Below are positions 4,720 through 17,705 of a stretch of 20,000 bases of DNA, piece by piece. Origin of the DNA: an uncultured virus (IMG/VR IMGVR_UViG_3300035208_003226) (Duplodnaviria; Heunggongvirae; Uroviricota; Caudoviricetes); IMG/VR virus record IMGVR_UViG_3300035208_003226; one strand, written 5' to 3'. Position 1 is the first letter of the stretch; every line of letters begins with the position of its first letter. Both the position numbers and the translations under genes were made by a program. The notes under the pieces were generated by a model, which made no database searches, was not told where the DNA came from, and saw only the letters and a program-made list of their open reading frames with translations.

Positions 4720-6924
4720 TTATTTAACCTCCACAACAGGGACATATGTGCATCTACACATTGGATGTAAAGGCATTTGTTCTTCGCTACCAATATCAAA
4801 TATACGTCCATGTAAAGATTCACAATCAGGACAAGTTCTTTCTCCATAACTTGCAACCCATTCTACTTTATTAATTCCGTTTTCTTTATAATAATCAAGA
4901 GCACCCATATTTGCCAATCTTGTAATCTCACTTCTTACAATTGTCACACTTCTGTTTTCTTTTGACTTTTGTAATATTGGCAAACCACTAACACCTTTTT
5001 TAATATCTCCTTCTTCAGTCATTCTATATAAATCTTTTAATTGTAATTTCTTATCAACCTCATCTGCAATATCTTTTATACTTGCCCCATTTTTAAATCC
5101 TTTTTCTAATATCGCTTTTAATTCTGTTATTTGTGTGTCAGATAAATATCCTGCTAATCTTTCTGTTTCATTACTTGCTCTAATTAATCCAAAATCATAA
5201 TTTTCTATATTTGCTAAAATAAACTTTATATAATCTTTATATTTGAATCCCAACCATTCTTCAATATCGTTAACATCATTAAAACTTTCTTGGCAATGTG
5301 GACATTCTTTTTCATATTCATAATTATGTTTCATATGTTTAAACATTGCCATTCGTGTTAATGCCTTTTTTGCTTCATCTTCACTATCATAAGTTCCCAA
5401 CACCTTTCCTGTTTGATGACTTATCACTTGCCATTTACTACCTGCTTTTCTAACAAATTCTTTTAGCTCATCAACATTATCAATATCCGTGCTTTCTTTT
5501 TTTAAAACCTTTTTACTTGGCACTATATTTTTCTTAACTATTTTTTTTACTTTCTTTTTTTCTAACTTTACAGGTTCGTTTTTAACAACTGGTTTTTGCG
5601 GTATATGAGCATTTTGTCCAGGAACAACTGGTTGTGATAACGCTTCTTCTCTTTTTCTTAATTCTTCTTGCTCCGCCTTTAATTCTTCCCATTTATCTTT
5701 ATCTAACTTCATTATATTAATTAATTCATCTTCCAATATTTCTTTAATTGCAAATCCTGCTGCAGGAGATTTAATCAAATCGCTAATCAACTTTAATCTT
5801 CCTTCAACTTCCATAACACTTGGTGTTCCCCATTCAAATTCTACATGTATATCAAATCCGTTCGCATTAAGTATTCTCTTAAAAATCTTTTCTTCAATAA
5901 CTTTTTCTATTTCAGCTTGCATAGATTGTATTCTTCTTTGGAATCCTTCTAACTGAACTTTTGCAAGTCCTTCAGGAATATTAGCCATTCCCATAAGAAC
6001 AGCAGGTATTTGAAAGTCGTAAATTAATTTCTCAATATCATAACGCAATATACTATCAAACTTATCACCAATTTTTCCAAAATCAACAACACTTAAATCA
6101 ACTAAATCATCTGTTGCCCAATCAGTCTTATTATCCATTGTTTCCATCTTCTGACCAAATGCAACAACATCTTCAGGTTTAGGAATAATTTTAACATTGC
6201 CATCTACCTTACCCAACTTAGCATGTAAAGGACTATTAGCTTTTCTATTTTGAATCTGATGACAATCTTTTTCATTCTGTAATAAATGGTCTATATCTCG
6301 CATAGAACTAACACCTATTCCTATTCCATAAGCACCATCACCAACAATATTAAATGGAATATGTGCAATTTCTACTGATGTAAAAGGAACAATCTTCGTT
6401 TTATCCAACTTATTAAATGCACCTGTATATTGATTATAACCCTCAACGTTTCCTAACTTATCTCTAACCACATACATATAATTTGCATTAAGCACCTTTA
6501 ATCCATCAATACCCTTATCAACAGTTCCTCCAATCTCAAGAAATCCATTGCCTTTAACTAACGCTTCTTTACACCATTGTCTAAGCAATGTATCAAATCC
6601 GACATCTTGTATAAAATCTTCTATAATCTTTTTTGCTTGTTCATTCTCACAAACGATATAAAATCCTGGTCCAACAATATAATCTATATACTTGTCAACA
6701 ACAGCAGTAAAAAAACCAAATCTCTTATAAAGTTCTTCCATCTGTTTAAAATCGAATGGATGTTCTTCCCCTAACTCCTGTGGAAACTTAATTGTCTTTA
6801 ATTCCGACTGTCCTTTAAACTGTTCTGTTAAATGTAAGAAGTTTTCTGAAAGACTCGGTTTATATTCTAAATCTACAATTCCTGTATTTTCTTTTATTAT
6901 CTTATTTCTATTCCAAAATGCCAT
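4720..6924 (-). CDS. Portal protein fused to MuF / SPP1 gp7-type minor head protein
   Basis: N-terminal ~420 aa are portal-like (WCKEALVKGNGFLEI, GAYGIG, FQIPAVLMG). C-terminus has MuF motifs IVRSEITR, WVASYGERTCPDC, PLHPMCRC. Follows TerL. Start moved to ATG 6924 behind an AGGTGAT RBS. Confidence 0.88.
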   Translation of the reverse strand: MAFWNRNKIIKENTGIVDLEYKPSLSENFLHLTEQFKGQSELKTIKFPQELGEEHPFDFKQMEELYKRFGFFTAVVDKYIDYIVGPGFYIVCENEQAKKIIEDFIQDVGFDTLLRQWCKEALVKGNGFLEIGGTVDKGIDGLKVLNANYMYVVRDKLGNVEGYNQYTGAFNKLDKTKIVPFTSVEIAHIPFNIVGDGAYGIGIGVSSMRDIDHLLQNEKDCHQIQNRKANSPLHAKLGKVDGNVKIIPKPEDVVAFGQKMETMDNKTDWATDDLVDLSVVDFGKIGDKFDSILRYDIEKLIYDFQIPAVLMGMANIPEGLAKVQLEGFQRRIQSMQAEIEKVIEEKIFKRILNANGFDIHVEFEWGTPSVMEVEGRLKLISDLIKSPAAGFAIKEILEDELINIMKLDKDKWEELKAEQEELRKREEALSQPVVPGQNAHIPQKPVVKNEPVKLEKKKVKKIVKKNIVPSKKVLKKESTDIDNVDELKEFVRKAGSKWQVISHQTGKVLGTYDSEDEAKKALTRMAMFKHMKHNYEYEKECPHCQESFNDVNDIEEWLGFKYKDYIKFILANIENYDFGLIRASNETERLAGYLSDTQITELKAILEKGFKNGASIKDIADEVDKKLQLKDLYRMTEEGDIKKGVSGLPILQKSKENRSVTIVRSEITRLANMGALDYYKENGINKVEWVASYGERTCPDCESLHGRIFDIGSEEQMPLHPMCRCTYVPVVEVK

Positions 6925-6947
6925 TAAAAGCAATCACCTGCCAAGTT

Positions 6948-7576: not shown

Positions 7577-8866
7577 TTAAGCTAACATCGGTCTATAATT
7601 ACCCTCATCTTTACATGCCCAACATGCCAATGCTAATGCATCTGGATAATCATCGTGCCCTCTCTCACTATGATGTAACTTCATTCCACCACTACTCGTC
7701 AACTCATATCTTAAATCCAACAACTGATAAACCAACTTTCTATGATTCGGAAACTTAATCTTTCCCTGCTCCATCAACTTCTTCAAATTACTATAAATAT
7801 CCATCTTACTCTGCAAAGTAAATACCAATGCATCAACCCTATAATCATCATGTCCATCACCACCCAAACTCTCAGCCAACCAATCGCTTGGTCCACTTCC
7901 CATACCCGTTTTATCCAATAATATCTTATTATATCCATACTTCTCATCTAACTCTACACATTTTCCTACAACCTCTCTCGGCTTATTCTTTTCGTAATTG
8001 CTAATATCAACCACTCTAAATTCGCCACCACAACTCAACAAACTTATAAAAACGCTTTCATCCTCGCCTTCACCAGCAATATCAACCCCCAATCCATAAT
8101 CGTGTTTTGGTATCTTCGCTTCAGGAAGATTATACTCTTCAATACAATTCTGTATAACCTCATACTTGAAATAACAATCTGCATCTTCTATAAACTTCGC
8201 TTCATATTCTGTTGCAAATTCCATCTCAGTCAAATTCTTTCTCTGCTCTTCAATAAACTCTTTTGTTATCTGTCCACAAGCAACTGGAAATGTCCAATCA
8301 TAATCAAATAACTTATATTGTGTTTCCGAACCATGAGCACTTTCCCAAAAATGATTCTTTCCTTTGCCTGTTCCAATTTTTATAATCTGCCCATCTGTTG
8401 ATGCTATCATCGGCATTATAACCTCGTTAACAATACTGTCCTTAATTCCTTCTGCTTCTTCTAACACCACAGTCTTTCCTGTGAATCCTCTTATTGTATC
8501 TCCATTTGGTCCAACTGGTAATGATAATATTCTGCTACCATTTTCAAAAACCATTTCAGTTTGTGTAGATATTTTTATAAATCTCGCAAATATTTTCGAA
8601 TTGCTAACTAAATTTCTAATCTTACTATACAATTCAGAACTCTGTTTTTGTGTAGGAGCAAAAATCAAAAATGTATAATTACTTTCTGTAAGGCATTTAT
8701 AAACCGCATAAGCACTTACACTTGTAGACTTACCACTCTGTCTGCACCAAACTCCAACAACTCTTTTGTTCTTACAACATTCTTTGAGAAAATCTTGTTG
8801 ATATTTATAAGGATAAAAATTAAAAAAACACTCAACAAAATCTATTATCTCATTTTCATCTTCCAT
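7577..8866 (-). CDS. terL: Terminase large subunit
   Basis: PYKYQ adenine-binding motif, Walker A CRQSGKS, Walker B VVLEEA, coupling motif GTG, RNase H-like nuclease motifs GVDIAGEGED, LDKTGMG, HDDYPDALALA. Confidence 0.95.
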   Translation of the reverse strand: MEDENEIIDFVECFFNFYPYKYQQDFLKECCKNKRVVGVWCRQSGKSTSVSAYAVYKCLTESNYTFLIFAPTQKQSSELYSKIRNLVSNSKIFARFIKISTQTEMVFENGSRILSLPVGPNGDTIRGFTGKTVVLEEAEGIKDSIVNEVIMPMIASTDGQIIKIGTGKGKNHFWESAHGSETQYKLFDYDWTFPVACGQITKEFIEEQRKNLTEMEFATEYEAKFIEDADCYFKYEVIQNCIEEYNLPEAKIPKHDYGLGVDIAGEGEDESVFISLLSCGGEFRVVDISNYEKNKPREVVGKCVELDEKYGYNKILLDKTGMGSGPSDWLAESLGGDGHDDYRVDALVFTLQSKMDIYSNLKKLMEQGKIKFPNHRKLVYQLLDLRYELTSSGGMKLHHSERGHDDYPDALALACWACKDEGNYRPMLA

Positions 8867-8954: not shown

Positions 8955-9203
8955 TTACCATTCGCCGTATTCTCCATAATCGTCTTCCTCTTTATTGTGT
9001 GCCTCTTTATGGCACGTTGAACATAACGGAATAACATCTTCATATAGCACCTCGAATCCTAAATTCTCGTAACTCAAATGATGCAACTCTGTTGCTTTCT
9101 CACCGCAATTAAAACATTCCCAATTTGCTTCATCCATCATCTCCTTTCTTCTTTCTCGCCAGTCTTCCGAACAAATATATAAAATATATTCATCTTTTTC
9201 CAA
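8955..9203 (-). CDS. HNH endonuclease, terminase-associated type
   Basis: CFNC...LHHLSY...LCSTCHKEAH; adjacent to terL. Confidence 0.85.
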   Translation of the reverse strand: MEKDEYILYICSEDWRERRKEMMDEANWECFNCGEKATELHHLSYENLGFEVLYEDVIPLCSTCHKEAHNKEEDDYGEYGEW

Positions 9204-9780
9204 ATTTGTTCCTCCAATAATCTCTATTAAAATTTGTTTTATTATGACAACTTTTACATAATGTTATTAAATTTTCTGGACTGCAATTTTTCTTATTATA
9301 ATCTATATGGTGAACACACCATCCATATTTAGAACATATTTGACAAATATATTTGTCTCTTTCTCTAATACTTCTTTTAAGTGTTTTTGTCCAATCTACT
9401 GAATATATTTCTTTACTAATTCCGCCTTTCCAATTATAATGTTCAATACCTTTTTTAATTCTTTTTTCAATAGTTTCTTTAGATTGTTTTTTTCCTATAT
9501 GAGATAATTTCATTTTATTTATACTTTCTAAACTTCTTTTTTTACCTTTATTTTTTAAACTTATTTTTTGTTTAGTTTTATCAGTATGTTTATATCCTTT
9601 TCTTTTTTTATGTTTATCGCTATTACTTTTTTTTCCTTCTTCTGAAAAATGATAAGTTCCTTTCTTACCTTTATTCCATGGTATATTTCCTTTTTTAAAA
9701 GGTTTTATTTTTCCTTCTTTAATTCTTAATTTAACAGTATCTCTAATTTTTTCGTTTCGTATTTTACTATACTTTCTCAT
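9190..9780 (-). CDS. NUMOD3-repeat HNH homing endonuclease
   Basis: PWNKG and repeated H(T/S)xxTKxKIS-like motifs; C-terminal CQIC...VHHIDYNKKNCSPENLITLCKSCH. Confidence 0.88.
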   Translation of the reverse strand: MRKYSKIRNEKIRDTVKLRIKEGKIKPFKKGNIPWNKGKKGTYHFSEEGKKSNSDKHKKRKGYKHTDKTKQKISLKNKGKKRSLESINKMKLSHIGKKQSKETIEKRIKKGIEHYNWKGGISKEIYSVDWTKTLKRSIRERDKYICQICSKYGWCVHHIDYNKKNCSPENLITLCKSCHNKTNFNRDYWRNKFGKR

Positions 9781-13487: not shown

Positions 13488-13628
13488 GTCTTTCTTTAAT
13501 ATACTTAAACATTTTTTACAATTAACATTAGATATATTATCTGTAGTATCATCAAATTCTCCATTAAGTCTGCTATCACAAAGTCTAATTCTATTTCCAA
13601 AATCAAATTTAACAAAATGTATTTTCAT
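13470..13628 (-). CDS. Small zinc-binding protein (52 aa)
   Basis: MKIHF...LC...VNCKKC; start moved to ATG 13628 behind GGAGG. Confidence 0.65.
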   Translation of the reverse strand: MKIHFVKFDFGNRIRLCDSRLNGEFDDTTDNISNVNCKKCLSILKKDEEDLA

Positions 13629-13679
13629 TCTGCTAAATCCTCCTCTTGAATTTTTGTTAGGTATGGGTTGTTGTTCATT
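13621..13679. repeat. Fused junction repeat B (13621-13646) and repeat A (13644-13679)
   Basis: First part is identical to 13847-13872; second part is 35/36 identical to 13284-13319. Confidence 0.9.
13625..13678 (-). CDS. 17-aa chimeric mini-ORF MNNNPYLTKIQEEDLAE
   Basis: In frame, with ATGA overlaps at both ends; made entirely of repeats A and B. Confidence 0.5.
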   Translation of the reverse strand: MNNNPYLTKIQEEDLAE

Positions 13680-13854
13680 TCTTCTTACCCCTACTCTTTG
13701 GTAATTCATAATGCATTTTCATTAAATCTTTTTTTAATATATTTCCAACAGACATAAAAAACTCTTGATATGAAACTTTCTTTATGTTAAGTTTAATCCA
13801 CTCAACACAGATTATCTTAACTTTCTTTCTATCGGTTATATCTTTCATTTTCAT
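13675..13854 (-). CDS. Hypothetical basic protein (59 aa)
   Basis: Hand-translated MKMKDITDRKKVKIICVEWIK...KSRGKKK; GGAGG RBS and ATGA overlaps at both ends. Confidence 0.65.
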   Translation of the reverse strand: MKMKDITDRKKVKIICVEWIKLNIKKVSYQEFFMSVGNILKKDLMKMHYELPKSRGKKK

Positions 13855-13872
13855 TCTGCTAAATCCTCCTCT
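13847..13872. repeat. Junction repeat B, full copy
   Basis: 26/26 identical to 13621-13646. Confidence 0.9.
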
Positions 13873-14087
13873 GAAAGATTGAAGAAATCCATAAAGGCAA
13901 GATAAGCGTTTCTATGATGTTTAATTGCATACTTAAACCATTTTATTGCCTCAGTTTTTAACACATTATTCCATACAACTTTAGGGTAACTTCCTGTTTC
14001 TTTTAGTAAGAATCTTTTTTCACTTTCTAACATCATTAAATTCGGTTCTATTTCAATGTCTTTTAAAGTTTTTAGTTCGGTTGTCAT
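13851..14087 (-). CDS. Hypothetical viral protein (78 aa)
   Basis: Intact ORF, LKTLKD...EAIKW...FFNLSEEDL; ATGA overlap with the next gene. Confidence 0.75.
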   Translation of the reverse strand: MTTELKTLKDIEIEPNLMMLESEKRFLLKETGSYPKVVWNNVLKTEAIKWFKYAIKHHRNAYLAFMDFFNLSEEDLAE

Positions 14088-14096
14088 ATAATCGTC

Positions 14097-14909
14097 TCAA
14101 GGATACCCAATCCCTTTAGGGTTGGGAGGAATTGAGGGAGCTTCCTTTAAATTTAGTTGTGATAATCTTTCGTTAGCAATTTTACAATATTCTTCTGAAA
14201 TTTCAAAACCAATATAATTTCTTCCCAACTTCTTACAAACTAATGCAGTTGTTCCAGCACCACTAAAGGGGTCGCATATATTTGCATTCTTCCAAGAAAA
14301 CATTTTAATACATCTCTTTACTAATTCTTCAGGAAACATTGCATTATGTCCAAATACTTTTTGTTTAGTTTCAGGAGCAAATTTCCAAAGTGCTAAAGAC
14401 CATTCTATAAATTCTTCTTTTGTTAAATCAGTTTCCCCTCTCTTTTGAAGTTTTCTATCTCCTTTAGCAAAAATAAGTATATGTTCAAATGGTGTAGGAA
14501 AAGATGGACAAGATGGAGATAAAAATGACCCCCAACTTGTTCTGTTACCTACTTGAGATTTGTCCCATATAATGTGTGTTATGGGAATGTATCCAATTTC
14601 TTTCATAAATTGAATTATATCACTTGATGTTGGAACTGCTCCATTTCTACCATCTCCAATATTTATACAACATCTTCCGCCCATACATTGTTTTTTAAAT
14701 AATTCTGAAAATACTTCTTTTAACCATTTAATATAATCTTGATGGTCTTTGTTGTCGTTATATAAATCATAAGGACTTTTATGATATTTATTATTCCCTA
14801 AATCTACATTATAAGGTGGAGAAGTAATTACTAAATCAATTAAATTATCTTCTATCTTTTTAATCCCTTCAAGGCAATCTTCGTTGTATATTTTGTTTGT
14901 TTCTAACAT
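14097..14909 (-). CDS. Beta-class amino-DNA methyltransferase (N4-C/N6-A family, SPPY type)
   Basis: Motif IV TSPPY precedes HNAMFP and motif I DPFSGAGTT, then GFEISEEY; no restriction enzyme nearby. Confidence 0.93.
   Translation of the reverse strand: MLETNKIYNEDCLEGIKKIEDNLIDLVITSPPYNVDLGNNKYHKSPYDLYNDNKDHQDYIKWLKEVFSELFKKQCMGGRCCINIGDGRNGAVPTSSDIIQFMKEIGYIPITHIIWDKSQVGNRTSWGSFLSPSCPSFPTPFEHILIFAKGDRKLQKRGETDLTKEEFIEWSLALWKFAPETKQKVFGHNAMFPEELVKRCIKMFSWKNANICDPFSGAGTTALVCKKLGRNYIGFEISEEYCKIANERLSQLNLKEAPSIPPNPKGIGYP
14102..14126 (+). repeat. Left-end guide and hairpin GATA-CCCAA(T)CCC-TTTA-GGGTTGGG
   Basis: Imperfect palindrome with one bulged T. Confidence 0.8.
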
Positions 14910-14921
14910 TTTGTTTCCTTA

Positions 14922-14946
14922 GATACTCCACCCTTTAGGGTGTGAG
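14922..14946 (+). repeat. Right-end guide and hairpin GATA-CTCCACCC-TTTA-GGGTG(T)GAG
   Basis: Imperfect palindrome with one bulged T; same length and orientation as the left one. Confidence 0.8.
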
Positions 14947-14952
14947 AGTATG

Positions 14953-15501
14953 TCATTCTTTTCCTCCAAAGTATTTATTAATAAAAGAATTAATATCTTC
15001 CCAACAAATAATTCCTGTAGTAAATTTAAGATATAAATCATCTTTCAGCTTCTTAACTTTCTCATTCAAATTCTCATTAACTCTATCGTTATGTTCACAA
15101 AATATCTTTTGTCCAGTATAATATCTATTTCTCCATTCATCAATTTCTTTCTGCATTTCTCTTTTTTGGGTTTCCTGTCCTGCTTTAAAATTATTTCGAG
15201 CAGTTTTAAATAAAAGAGCATCTGCGTAATTTATTTCTTTATCTTTATAGAAATTAGTTATATCTTGGTTAGTTATTTCCTGCATTTTTTGTGCAGTTAA
15301 GGAAATAGCTTCTAAAACGTCTTCTCCTGTATATTTCTTTGGATTATCTTTAAATCTCTGTTTTCTATTAATTATCTTATACATTATTTCTTGCTTTATC
15401 TCATCTGAAAAAGTGTCCGCAAAAGAAGTTGAAATAACAACAGAACTCTCCTTAGCATAAGCAGAATCAGTTATCTTCTTCTTTGGACTATTATTTTTCA
15501 T
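14953..15501 (-). CDS. Hypothetical protein (182 aa)
   Basis: Coupled to the E1 gene by an ATGA overlap; helical, no recognised motif. Confidence 0.7.
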   Translation of the reverse strand: MKNNSPKKKITDSAYAKESSVVISTSFADTFSDEIKQEIMYKIINRKQRFKDNPKKYTGEDVLEAISLTAQKMQEITNQDITNFYKDKEINYADALLFKTARNNFKAGQETQKREMQKEIDEWRNRYYTGQKIFCEHNDRVNENLNEKVKKLKDDLYLKFTTGIICWEDINSFINKYFGGKE

Positions 15502-16178
15502 TTTCCCAACACCTTCAAACTTGGCATCGTTCTTTTAATTACTTTGAAATATTCCTCACCCTTATCAATCATCTTCACAATCTGGCAAGTTTCACTTGCA
15601 ATACTCAACACCGTATAAATCACACTTTTCTCACCGCAAACCGTATCTGCAGTCTTCTCCTCCAAATGCTTCTTACAACTCTCCACATCTTCTTTCTTTG
15701 CAAAATCATAACCATAAATCGCATAACTATCTGCACCCATTCTTGTATCTACCAACTTTATTGGTATCTGCTTCACAGCATCATAAACTATCTTTCTTGC
15801 TTCCATATTATCAAAACACAAAACCACCACAGTATTCAAATCCACATTATTTTCAATAATCTTGCCAATATTCCTTTTTGTAATCTTTTTCTCACAAATG
15901 CTAATCTGAGTTTCAGTAAAATCTTCAACAATATCCCTTAATGAATAAACTTTATACTTTCCAATATCACTTATTCTATAAAACTGATTAGGAATATTCT
16001 GCTTCTCCACCGTATCAAAATCAAACACAGTAATATTATTGAATCCCAACTTCGCCAAATTTAACGTTATAAAACTTCCCGTGCTTCCTGCACCAAATAC
16101 TAAAATATTACTTCTTTGCTTTTCAGGATTGAAAATCTTTTCTTGTCTTTCATAACTCACGACATTATCTTTAGTCAT
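15498..16178 (-). CDS. ThiF/MoeB/E1-family Ubl-activating enzyme
   Basis: YERQ, ILVFGAGSTGS, DFDTVEKQNIPNQ, GKYKV, CFDNMEARK, DTRMG; candidate catalytic Cys in TVCG. Start moved to 16178 (GGAGG, ATGA overlap). Confidence 0.92.
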   Translation of the reverse strand: MTKDNVVSYERQEKIFNPEKQRSNILVFGAGSTGSFITLNLAKLGFNNITVFDFDTVEKQNIPNQFYRISDIGKYKVYSLRDIVEDFTETQISICEKKITKRNIGKIIENNVDLNTVVVLCFDNMEARKIVYDAVKQIPIKLVDTRMGADSYAIYGYDFAKKEDVESCKKHLEEKTADTVCGEKSVIYTVLSIASETCQIVKMIDKGEEYFKVIKRTMPSLKVLGK

Positions 16179-16510
16179 ATTTCCTCCCACATTTCATCAA
16201 ATTCTTCCTTTGTAATAGTATTTTCATTCATATCATAATAACTCTCACTAAATCCATCATTATCTAAATATCGGTTATGAACACATTTATTAAAATTACT
16301 GTATTCACTCCAACATTTGTTTCCCTCATTATCATAAGTAAAAATCTCATTTCCTTTAAAATCATATTCACTCCATCGTTCAAAACCATTTTCCATATAT
16401 TTTAAATGTAAAATATTTCCATTCATATCATACCAATATTCTACAATATATCCATAAGCTTCAACCCTCTTATAATCAACATATGGTTGTTTTAATCTAT
16501 ATTCTGTCAT
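16175..16510 (-). CDS. Small YD-like beta-hairpin repeat protein (111 aa)
   Basis: WYDMNGN, WSEYDFKGN, TYDNEGN, YYDMNEN; ends ITKEEFDEMWEEI. Confidence 0.7.
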   Translation of the reverse strand: MTEYRLKQPYVDYKRVEAYGYIVEYWYDMNGNILHLKYMENGFERWSEYDFKGNEIFTYDNEGNKCWSEYSNFNKCVHNRYLDNDGFSESYYDMNENTITKEEFDEMWEEI

Positions 16511-17421
16511 TCTTGCAACTCCTCAATATTTATATAATCCCCCGAACTTTGTAACTCTTCATCATCTCGCCAATCTTCTTCATCAACTCCGTCTTGTTTG
16601 CAATCCCAACTATAAATATAATCTCGAACAATAGTGAAAAACATTTCTGTATTATCTTTATTCAAAAACTTAAACAACAAGCAACCCTTTCCAACATTCT
16701 CAGGTTCATACTCTGCAAAATCTTTTTGCAACGCTTTTCTTAATGCTTTATGCAAACTAAAAATCTTTACTGTATTGTTCATCATAATAGCATTTCTTCC
16801 ATAATTTATGAAATTTGGTTTAGCATCAACCTTTTGTCCAAATATGTCTTTCTGTCCTTTTGCCGAACTACTATAAACTGGTTCTTTAACCTTGCTCTCG
16901 ATAATCTCTTTCATCTCGTTTTCTATATCGTGATTAATAACGCAAAATCCAATATCATTTAAACTGAAAGTTATAAAAGGTTCTCTATACTCAACCCTTA
17001 CCAAATGTTTTCCTTTGCTACTAACGATATAAACCGTTAATTTTCTATGCTCCGAAAAAGAATTTATCAACCCCTCATCAACGCCACTCCAAAAACAACC
17101 CATAGTATTATGACTGTGCCATTCTCCCATAATTCTATTACACTCCTCAGGATGTTCTCTCATCAAACCTGAAATTTGAGTTGTGCTAAAATCAATTCCT
17201 CCTTTATCTGCTTCTTGTTCTGGAAATATTAAATCTTCTAACAACAACATATCATCTTCTATCTTGCCAATAATAAATCCTCCAATCTCCTTATCATAAT
17301 TGCTACTCATCCAATCAATAATATCCTTAAACTTTCTACTCATAACCACCTTATACCCAAAAGTGTATTTTGCTGTTTTCTTATCTTCTCTTTTATCTTC
17401 TTCTTTATCTTCCCAAGTCAT
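16507..17421 (-). CDS. JAB/MPN+ (JAMM) metalloisopeptidase with C-terminal extension
   Basis: KEIGG catalytic Glu; WHSHNTMGCFWSGVD matches HxH-x7-S-x2-D. Start moved to 17421 (GAGGT, ATGA overlap). Confidence 0.9.
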   Translation of the reverse strand: MTWEDKEEDKREDKKTAKYTFGYKVVMSRKFKDIIDWMSSNYDKEIGGFIIGKIEDDMLLLEDLIFPEQEADKGGIDFSTTQISGLMREHPEECNRIMGEWHSHNTMGCFWSGVDEGLINSFSEHRKLTVYIVSSKGKHLVRVEYREPFITFSLNDIGFCVINHDIENEMKEIIESKVKEPVYSSSAKGQKDIFGQKVDAKPNFINYGRNAIMMNNTVKIFSLHKALRKALQKDFAEYEPENVGKGCLLFKFLNKDNTEMFFTIVRDYIYSWDCKQDGVDEEDWRDDEELQSSGDYINIEELQE

Positions 17422-17705
17422 ATTTCTACCTCTTCCCATAACATATTAAATTCTTCCTCTGTGATGTTATTATAATAATCATCAAACCATTCTTCCTCTA
17501 CTATCGTTTCATTTTTATCTTCTCCAAATACAATTTTTTTAGTATGAATCTCATTTCCATAAACACTAAAATCACTATATTGTTCTTCTTTAACATTTTT
17601 ATAATGCTCTATCTCCCATTCTCCATCAACATATATATATTTACAATTGCCACTAAACTTCACTGTTCCTTCTGCTATTCTTGGTATTTTTAATTTATAT
17701 ATCAT
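17418..17705 (-). CDS. Small protein paralogous to 16175..16510 (95 aa)
   Basis: Starts YKLKIP (cf. YRLKQP); ends ITEEEFNMLWEEVEI. Confidence 0.65.
   Translation of the reverse strand: MIYKLKIPRIAEGTVKFSGNCKYIYVDGEWEIEHYKNVKEEQYSDFSVYGNEIHTKKIVFGEDKNETIVEEEWFDDYYNNITEEEFNMLWEEVEI

Follow-up and report, generated by a model that had tools for sequence, protein, structure and literature searches.

A probable IS200/IS605-type element with a DNA methyltransferase as its only cargo in the genome of an uncultured tailed virus

Introduction

Among the described systems closest to the element considered here is IS608, which, according to passages of PMC3201880, is cleaved 3′ of the tetranucleotide TTAC, 19 nucleotides (nt) 5′ of its left hairpin, and at TCAA, 10 nt 3′ of its right hairpin, both sites being recognised by four nucleotides at the 5′ foot of a hairpin that contains an extrahelical T. 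Passages of PMC5934647 give the left guide (GL) as AAAG at +16..+19 and the right guide (GR) as GAAT, with A+16 paired to T-3 and A+17 to T-4. The present analysis concerns a 20,000-nt stretch of DNA, hereafter termed the window, from an uncultured virus of the Caudoviricetes (IMG/VR record IMGVR_UViG_3300035208_003226), where positions 14088-14956 (869 bp) are made up of a left end (LE) and a right end (RE) with one gene, encoding a DNA methyltransferase, between them. Very probably, this segment is a non-autonomous member of the IS200/IS605 group that carries its methylase as a passenger, would be mobilised by TnpA acting in trans, and originates from a lineage with the order RE-tnpA-methyltransferase-LE.

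Three further systems are of relevance. Palindrome-associated transposable elements (PATEs) are short, non-coding, non-autonomous derivatives of IS200/IS605 elements. Mobile insertion cassettes (MICs) and integron cassettes are promoter-less single passenger genes that lie between recombination signals and depend for their movement on an enzyme encoded elsewhere; the former use the inverted repeats of DDE-type insertion sequences, while the latter possess one attC, a bulged single-strand hairpin, and need the IntI integrase and an attI platform.

Structure of the element and its ends

The element is preceded by the tetranucleotide TCAT (14084..14087, + strand), which lies outside it, abuts the LE and is the putative target and left cleavage site; on the minus strand it reads ATGA and starts the downstream gene of 78 amino acids (aa). 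The LE (14088..14136, + strand; 55 bits with the nhmmer LE profile) is constructed of an 18-nt linker, the guide GATA at 14102-14105, i.e., +15..+18 counted from 14088, the hairpin CCCAATCCCTTTAGGGTTGGG at 14106-14126, in which T14111 is bulged, an AGGAA 3′ flank, and an outer stem formed by the pairing of 14096-14100 with 14132-14136. The RE (14913..14956, + strand; 52 bits with the nhmmer RE profile) contains the guide GATA at 14922-14925, i.e., -35..-32, the hairpin CTCCACCCTTTAGGGTGTGAG at 14926-14946, where the bulged base is T14943, and, at 14947-14956, the 10-nt tail AGTATGTCAT, whose final four bases, TCAT, are the predicted right cleavage site. These coordinates bear out a preliminary description, which had reported two hairpins each located 3′ of GATA, guides at the same two distances, and TCAT both to the left of the element and as its last four bases. 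Both hairpins are subterminal imperfect palindromes on the same (+) strand, as is expected of the ends of IS200/IS605 elements, which are devoid of terminal inverted repeats. Their shared core CCCTTTAGGG (10 nt) has exactly two exact copies in the 20 kb, besides one match with a single mismatch within the methylase gene; three matches compare with 0.32 expected, and this number was reached in none of 200 shuffles.

The geometry and guide rule of IS608 that the preliminary description had quoted are found in the passages of PMC3201880 and PMC5934647, and the spacings of 18 nt on the left and 10 nt on the right in the window stand beside 19 and 10 in IS608. When the pairing rule given in these passages is applied to GATA, a site of the form TCnT follows, and TCAT is found at both ends, which fits a guide GATA that would specify cleavage at TCAT. 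A divergent LE in a relative (L146), where the guide is AATA and the flank TTTT, also agrees with the rule, as a single case in AT-rich DNA. An alternative pairing between GGAGGA and TCCTCC just 3′ of the hairpin can also be drawn in the LE, and may match the "second LE hairpin" mentioned for IS608 and ISDra2 in a passage of PMC5934647.

On the minus strand, the two junctions read GGAGGAAAAGA-ATGA-CATACTC and GACGATTAT-ATGA-CAACC, the downstream one (TTAT-ATGA-CAACC on the gene strand) being the start of the 78-aa gene. Because ATGACA is present at both of them, the element boundary is uncertain by up to 6 nt from the window sequence alone. Deletion of 14088-14956 would yield minus-strand GGAGGAAAAGA-ATGA-CAACC, which is the string of the rebuilt stop/start junction claimed earlier. 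A mini open reading frame (mini-ORF) of 17 codons (14903..14956, minus strand) starts at the ATG of the junction ATGA, crosses the RE hairpin and terminates with a stop codon overlapping the methylase start codon; its equivalents in relatives comprise 12-17 codons and end a few nt ahead of the cargo ATG, and such a mini-ORF may relay translation to the cargo. Promoter-like sites are at chance level (9 against 8.0 expected).

A family of elements sharing the same ends

Relatives were sought with an RE pattern in the IMG/VR viral contigs, with an LE pattern, and with nhmmer LE and RE profiles, the matches of which were paired into elements. In the viral contigs, the RE pattern gave 28 loci, divided into 13 chance matches and 15 family sites that read ...GATAC-hairpin-GGGAGTATGTCAT and then run into unrelated sequence, while the LE pattern gave 34 loci, 25 of which are true LEs. 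The result of a variant LE pattern, GGATACCCN{11,13}GGGAGGA, was set aside, and the LE count given below for a 1.1-Mb genome (G013) rests on the original pattern. Pairing of the profile matches led to 20 distinct complete elements, 190-2330 bp long, from viral and metagenome contigs; on the gene strand all 20 begin with ATGA, and they are followed by ATGA in 19 cases and by ATAA in one.

Conservation was examined in an alignment of 25 REs (A1) and another of 31 LEs (A2). GATA and the terminal TCAT are present in 25/25 REs, and the 10-nt tail and the bulged T in 24/25 each. The LEs are flanked by TCAT (29/31) or TTAT (2/31), with a linker of 18 nt in 24/31 and of 21 nt in 7/31. The homologous boundaries thus fall at TCAT, as the preliminary description had anticipated, and the sequence outside TCAT differs at every locus.

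Single-sequence folding energy is weak evidence; the real support for the ends is comparative. In A1, the RE hairpin is 93.5% paired, compared with 29-51% when the partner columns are slid; five of its eight pairs are changed on both sides, and its covariation score was reached by none of 500 shuffles. The LE in A2 is 84.9% paired overall against 27-49% slid, and 12 of its 15 pairs are changed on both sides. Its inner helix is 93.5% paired, while an outer helix that had not been expected, formed between the linker and the sequence 3′ of AGGAA (A2 columns 27-33 with 65-71), displays changes on both sides in all seven pairs. The G·T wobbles of the inner hairpins, counted as 10 on the + strand and 2 on the gene strand, point, if modestly, to the + strand as the one that folds.

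Two unusual arrangements were encountered. At L088:1431-1505, a cargo-less mini-element of about 52 nt is situated between two ATGA and has one hybrid hairpin, made of an RE 5′ half and an LE 3′ half, with the RE-type tail and the LE-type linker kept; it could be a product of recombination or deletion between hairpins, or a minimal mobilisable unit. At L087:295-1535, two TnpA-less methylase-like cassettes are arranged in tandem, their LEs being truncated (only about 16 bits with the LE profile) and their cargo proteins sharing the tail ...ARHSSQAEMMELKEQTFQE; the TnpA-bearing element L145 is located about 12 kb off on the same viral contig.

Linkage to TnpA and diversity of the cargo

A Y1 TnpA is encoded between or next to such ends in eight relatives, namely L109 (=L094), L145, L146, L147, L162, L218, L227 and L176, which establishes the link of the hairpins to IS200/IS605 transposases on which the preliminary description had relied. 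A search with the TnpA of the viral record G007, described below, added the viral elements L145, L146 and L147, and the scan of genome contigs added L162, L218, L227 and L176. The seven TnpAs scanned with Pfam match PF01797 at 114-122 bits, and the TnpA of L094 is homologous to solved IS200/IS605 transposases, among them those of Sulfolobus (2ec2, 5e-31), IS608 (2a6m, 2e-15) and ISDra2 (9e-14). Among nine viral records with elements, one (G007) encodes a Y1 transposase (PF01797, 4.8e-37), which sits in a 2.3-kb element that possesses the RE and LE of the family; read along the gene strand, this element is composed of the RE, a 46-aa ORF, TnpA, an N4/N6 methylase, a second-RE remnant, small ORFs, and the LE abutting ATGA. 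The classical minimal IS200 layout is seen in L176 (0.7 kb), where a 143-aa tnpA is found on the top strand and the order is TCAT, LE (outer stem, GGATA-hairpin-AGGAA), tnpA, and GATA-hairpin-AGTATCAT.

In the 29 elements scanned, a methyltransferase above the Pfam cut-off is the commonest cargo (12/29), comprising five N6_N4_Mtase (window included), four C-5 DNA_methylase, two Dam (PF05869) and one MT-A70; five more elements have sub-threshold methylase-like matches, and the remaining cargos are small proteins of unassigned function. TnpA is encoded in 7/29 and is directly followed by a methyltransferase in five of these seven. Three TnpA-less elements have their cargo in common with TnpA-bearing ones. 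L100 shares a C-5 methylase with L162 (82% and 50% amino-acid identity over two pieces), L140 is 68% identical to L146 at the nucleotide level, and L129 is 65% identical to L145, with L117 and L087b linked through L129 at 69% and 71%. The simplest history would be that the TnpA-less elements arose through the loss of tnpA from RE-tnpA-cargo-LE elements.

In two TnpA-bearing relatives, the methyltransferase is split into two overlapping ORFs (L162:238-933, 84 + 138 aa; L145:4013-4617, 69 + 133 aa), for which frameshift, decay or programmed recoding are possible explanations.

Insertion site and related loci

A metagenome scan with the 182-aa protein encoded upstream of the element returned five loci. 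One (L148) is identical to the window. In L149, an identical upstream gene end and an identical RE precede a cargo of 175 aa and an LE, and the gene downstream is another one; this arrangement could have arisen by recombination inside the RE or by a separate insertion at this ATGA. The arrangement in L150 is ...GGAGGAAAAGA-ATGA-(55-aa gene)-ATGA-CAACCGAACTAAAAACTT, so both window flanks are present, and there the identical 22 nt ATGACAACCGAACTAAAAACTT form the beginning of a gene that immediately follows another ATGA junction. Elsewhere in L150, a 327-bp element has the exact RE and LE hairpin of the window around an 83-aa gene; with the 175-aa cargo beside the same RE in L149, this answers the earlier call for the same ends around other cargo. 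In L151, the gene end ...GGAGGAAAAGAATGA is directly followed by an unrelated gene, without an element; this ending is shared by the homologues of the 182-aa gene in L149, L150 and L151. In both L150 and L151, the flanks cease to be homologous precisely at the two ATGA, and the insertion locus is hypervariable.

The TCAT found at both window junctions resembles a 4-bp repeat. The LE flank is TTAT in L106 (also L120) and TTTT in L146, and the REs of L106 and L146 nonetheless end with TCAT; these cases, few as they are, argue against target duplication.

The methyltransferase cargo

The only ORF inside the element (14097..14909, minus strand) is intact and encodes a beta-class N4/N6 DNA methyltransferase of 270 aa, in accordance with the single cargo proposed at the outset. 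It matches Pfam N6_N4_Mtase over the full length of the profile (2e-45, positions 1-221 of 221) and PHROG 67 at 4.7e-58. The enzyme has the motif TSPPY, its closest solved structures in the PDB are the cytosine-N4 DNA methyltransferases 8s9m/8s9n (3e-24), and it is probably an N4-cytosine enzyme. The reading frame crosses the LE hairpin and stops at 14099-14097, so its final 20 codons or so are read-through of the LE; a methylase encoded at another locus (L001), 70% identical to that of the window, ends 20 aa earlier and is devoid of hairpins. The N4/N6 methylases carried by other elements share only some 30% identity with the window enzyme. The hairpin core was found in 0/79 viral-contig loci with relatives of the methylase, which indicates that the hairpins do not generally travel with this methylase family.

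Since no restriction enzyme is present beside it, the methylase is regarded as an orphan. Its orphan state, together with the varied classes of methylase in the elements, points to an anti-restriction role, and most plausibly it would protect viral DNA from host restriction.

Distribution and copy number

The metagenomes holding the window are the landfill and groundwater runs X1 and X2, the contigs of which were compared. In both, an approximately 5-fold increase in contig depth is seen over the LE and RE bins, and contigs break at 14088/14129 and 14916/14931, as multi-copy repeats would. The homology of the other copies ends at 14136, and cargo-less copies or further members of the family may underlie the joints that connect 14136 with 14907-14916.

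A scan of genome contigs for the LE gave at least 121 loci, at least 52 of which have a true LE by profile; about 50 of these 52 are flanked by TCAT, as judged by eye. The titled contigs are mostly metagenome-assembled genomes (MAGs) labelled Woesearchaeota, Nanoarchaeota, Pacearchaeota and other small archaeal bins, with a few bacterial MAGs. In a 1.1-Mb MAG (G013, the genome of L161), nine identical LE cores were counted, eight of them at contig ends, against none for a reversed control pattern, and the five LE copies fetched each stand behind a different flank ending with TCAT. This MAG is labelled Methanosarcinales, and no TnpA was detected in it. Its small size is suggestive of either a mixed bin or a DPANN-type genome, and the assembly may have lost the repeat itself. 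A complete 24-kb viral genome with two elements is also filed within a Pacearchaeota MAG. DPANN archaea are tentatively considered as hosts, on the strength of the MAG labels of contigs with related elements, which could reflect binning; the presence of a complete viral genome in a Pacearchaeota MAG is the reason for this caution.

Proposed mechanism

From the observed anatomy, family conservation, covariation, TCAT target, Y1 TnpA linkage and cargo common to TnpA-bearing and TnpA-less members, we infer an element that may still be mobile with TnpA supplied in trans, and whose methylase may be active and of anti-restriction benefit. The active (top) strand would be the + strand of the window, antisense to the genes, on which the element is located 3′ of the target TCAT and itself ends with TCAT. 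While this strand is single-stranded, a cognate TnpA dimer would bind both of its hairpins, GATA would pair with TCAT at each end, and the element would exit as a single-strand circle able to re-insert 3′ of a TCAT. Excision and re-insertion should take place only where a cognate TnpA is provided by a relative with the organisation RE - tnpA (Y1 HUH) - methyltransferase - LE, resident either in the host or in another virus infecting the same cell.

TCAT and ATGA being complementary, the element would land in the stop/start overlaps of translationally coupled genes and would thereby spare both neighbours: its terminal ATGA would provide the stop for the upstream gene, and the downstream gene would retain its original ATG. 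The RE-proximal ATG would open the mini-ORF of 12-17 codons that ends by the cargo start. In 6/9 elements, the stop codon of the cargo lies within the loop of the LE hairpin, each time in the same frame and about 30 nt ahead of the downstream ATG. It may be speculated that the mini-ORF and the cargo stop in the LE loop keep translation coupled.

Weighing of alternative explanations

Several observations weigh against a methylase-bearing element moved by TnpA. In Pfam and PHROG scans of its proteins, TnpA is absent from the 20-kb window. No TnpA-bearing element carrying this particular methylase was found among the related loci compared, so that the window cargo, unlike those of L100, L140 and L129, is without a TnpA-bearing partner, and its nearest relative (L001, 70%) sits outside any such element. 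The invariance of GATA is partly built in, the search patterns having held GATAC and GGGTATCC. Taken singly, the folding energy of the LE is unremarkable (z = -1.43; 18/200 shuffles fold equally well), that of the RE being z = -2.42 (4/200). Moreover, no allele was found with the window flanks directly abutted (L150 has a 55-aa gene between them and L151 another downstream gene), and neither an empty site nor an RE-LE circle joint was seen among the 15 of 48 joints listed, which are from metagenome contigs and not from reads. The search for an empty site proposed in the preliminary description was therefore met by homology breakpoints at both ATGA but not by a perfect empty-site allele, and that for a circle junction gave none among the joints mentioned. 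Finally, the pattern of L149 arises as easily by recombination in the conserved ends as by transposition.

The last of these points, together with the joints, could be accommodated by an immobile relic derived from IS200/IS605, whose cassettes would spread only by homologous recombination at the conserved ends of about 45 nt, without the action of TnpA. Such a relic would account for L149, where the upstream end and RE are identical and the cargo and downstream gene are others, and for the two tandem cassettes of L087 with truncated LEs (about 16 bits); the absence of TnpA from 8/9 viral records searched, including the 100%-complete 24-kb genome with two elements, would likewise be natural. 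It is nevertheless unlikely, as the conserved features are those which TnpA needs, i.e., guide, bulge, spacing and cleavage tetranucleotide, and the covariation at both hairpin ends is something that relics would not keep up. Identical LEs also stand by many unrelated flanks, always behind TCAT, and the contig with the tandem cassettes has the TnpA-bearing L145 as well. Appreciably less credible is the proposal that the ends are RNA-level expression signals concerned with coupling, mRNA processing or stability, the likeness to transposon ends being secondary and TnpA one cargo among many. It draws on the position of the ends in the transcribed DNA of a one-strand operon, on the mini-ORF that runs from the junction ATG across the RE to the cargo start, on cargo frames that often stop in the LE hairpin loop (same frame in 6/9 elements), and on the G·T wobbles of the outer LE stem, which have no strand preference (12 vs 10). 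Yet in the classical IS200 layout of L176, the same LE, guide and TCAT accompany a tnpA read from the opposite strand, so that the LE there is in a different mRNA context, and the inner-hairpin wobbles are more numerous on the + strand, i.e., antisense to the mRNA (10 vs 2). No Rfam family is matched by the element ends, a terminator scan of the region gave no terminator-like site, and the strict TCAT flank and the multi-copy LEs at contig ends would be left unexplained. The separate landing of two unrelated transposon stubs beside a resident methylase gene, to which the 70% identical methylase without hairpins might be taken to point, is hardly conceivable, given that the identical RE and LE hairpin are paired around another gene in L150, that the RE..LE order and orientation are constant in 20 complete elements, and that relatives of the flanking genes occur without a methylase at this junction. 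A non-autonomous IS200/IS605 element mobilised in trans is accordingly preferred.

Genomic context of the window

The window region is AT-rich, and every gene is on the minus strand. The protein scan assigned a portal/Mu-F protein (4720-6933, minus strand) and a large terminase (7577-8866, minus strand); since HNH endonucleases and an ERCC4-type nuclease are encoded as well, the window is considered as part of a tailed-virus genome. No integrase family was found among the window proteins scanned with Pfam and PHROG. The upstream flanking gene (14953..15501, minus strand) encodes the 182-aa protein, which has no assigned function and no relative in the viral contigs; its stop TGA comes from the terminal ATGA of the element. 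The downstream flanking gene (13851..14087, minus strand; 78 aa, MTTELKT...) starts at the target ATGA. A blastn search against the phage database gave short methylase similarities only and no related virus, and by tblastn the window proteins have almost no genes in common with any of the fetched loci.

Some features of the neighbourhood may be recorded in their own right. Two genes located near one another on the minus strand, immediately upstream of the element, specify a ThiF/E1-like protein (15498-16190; Pfam, 4.9e-26) and a JAB-domain protein (16507-17439; 1.6e-05), which constitute a ubiquitin-like-system pair in a virus genome. Beside the terminase, the overlapping adjacent ORFs 8955-9203 and 9190-9780 (minus strand) each match HNH endonuclease PHROGs and represent either one gene that is split or frameshifted or a pair of small HNH genes. 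The 26-nt sequence ATTTTCATTCTGCTAAATCCTCCTCT is repeated exactly, in direct orientation, at 13621-13646 and 13847-13872, 226 nt apart, at two successive small-gene junctions; on the gene strand it consists of a ribosome-binding site and an ATGA overlap, and it is a possible recombination point or recent duplication.

Significance

Known IS200/IS605 elements are minimal insertion sequences with tnpA, tnpB or iscB, while here the peel-and-paste machinery appears to serve as a cargo vehicle, a single gene, in most cases for an orphan DNA methyltransferase of one of several classes, being enclosed by ends that TnpA could recognise and put precisely into an ATGA junction of a viral operon. In the literature searched, which did not extend to ISfinder and subscription journals, neither IS200/IS605 elements with tnpA and a methyltransferase nor such viral cassettes were described. 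It is conceivable, though we would put it somewhat short of an even chance, that the family constitutes an undescribed IS200/IS605 lineage, in which the accessory slot normally taken by TnpB would be filled by exchangeable methyltransferases of at least four Pfam families, and which would circulate among viruses and DPANN-type archaea, target the ATGA stop/start overlaps of operons, possess ends that double as single-stranded DNA hairpins for TnpA and as an mRNA relay coupling the translation of upstream gene, cargo and downstream gene, and shuffle anti-restriction methylases between viruses.

If active, these elements would offer a simple natural means of transferring anti-restriction genes from virus to virus, the viruses apparently being those of the poorly known DPANN archaea, and would help to explain the turnover of the methylase repertoires of viruses. 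They would also represent a short, programmable and cargo-tolerant single-strand transposon with a defined 4-nt target, and they make testable the idea that transposon ends are shaped to keep the translational coupling of the genes they interrupt.

Comparison with known systems

Like MICs and integron cassettes, the window element is a single passenger gene bracketed by recombination-type signals. Its ends are distinct and directional, and neither DDE-type inverted repeats nor IntI or attI were seen. An assignment as an integron gene cassette was considered and ruled out, for there are two differing ends, each with its own hairpin, and no integrase among the scanned proteins. With PATEs, it shares the lack of TnpA, the IS200/IS605-type ends and a transposase that would be supplied in trans; at 869 bp and with an intact 270-aa methylase, it is excluded from this class, and its relatives carry many genes. 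The cargo-less 52-nt relative in L088 fits the definition of a PATE better than the window element does.

The likeness to the IS608/IS200 group is more extensive. Both have subterminal hairpins on one strand with an extrahelical base, a 4-nt guide at the 5′ foot, a left site outside the element (18-21 nt 5′ of the hairpin in the family, 19 in IS608) and a right site inside it (10 nt 3′ in each), as far as the IS608 passages of PMC3201880 and PMC5934647 describe them. In contrast with IS608, the window element is without tnpA and tnpB and has a DNA methyltransferase as its accessory gene, and the cargo-bearing lineage has tnpA and passenger on the strand opposite the active strand. In the family, cleavage on the left and on the right would take place at one and the same tetranucleotide, TCAT, compared with TTAC and TCAA in those passages, and the family LE has an extra covarying outer stem between the linker and the 3′ flank, which the same passages do not describe for IS608.

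The IS605-type elements with tnpA and tnpB and the non-autonomous ISC/IscB elements (PMC4810608, PMC10055086) are characterised, like the present family, by a transposase and one accessory gene between hairpins, and tnpA-less copies that keep the accessory gene are frequent in them as well. No omega-RNA-like Rfam match was obtained for the element. In place of an RNA-guided nuclease, the accessory slot of the family is occupied by interchangeable methyltransferases (N6_N4_Mtase, DNA_methylase, Dam and MT-A70) or by small genes of unassigned function.

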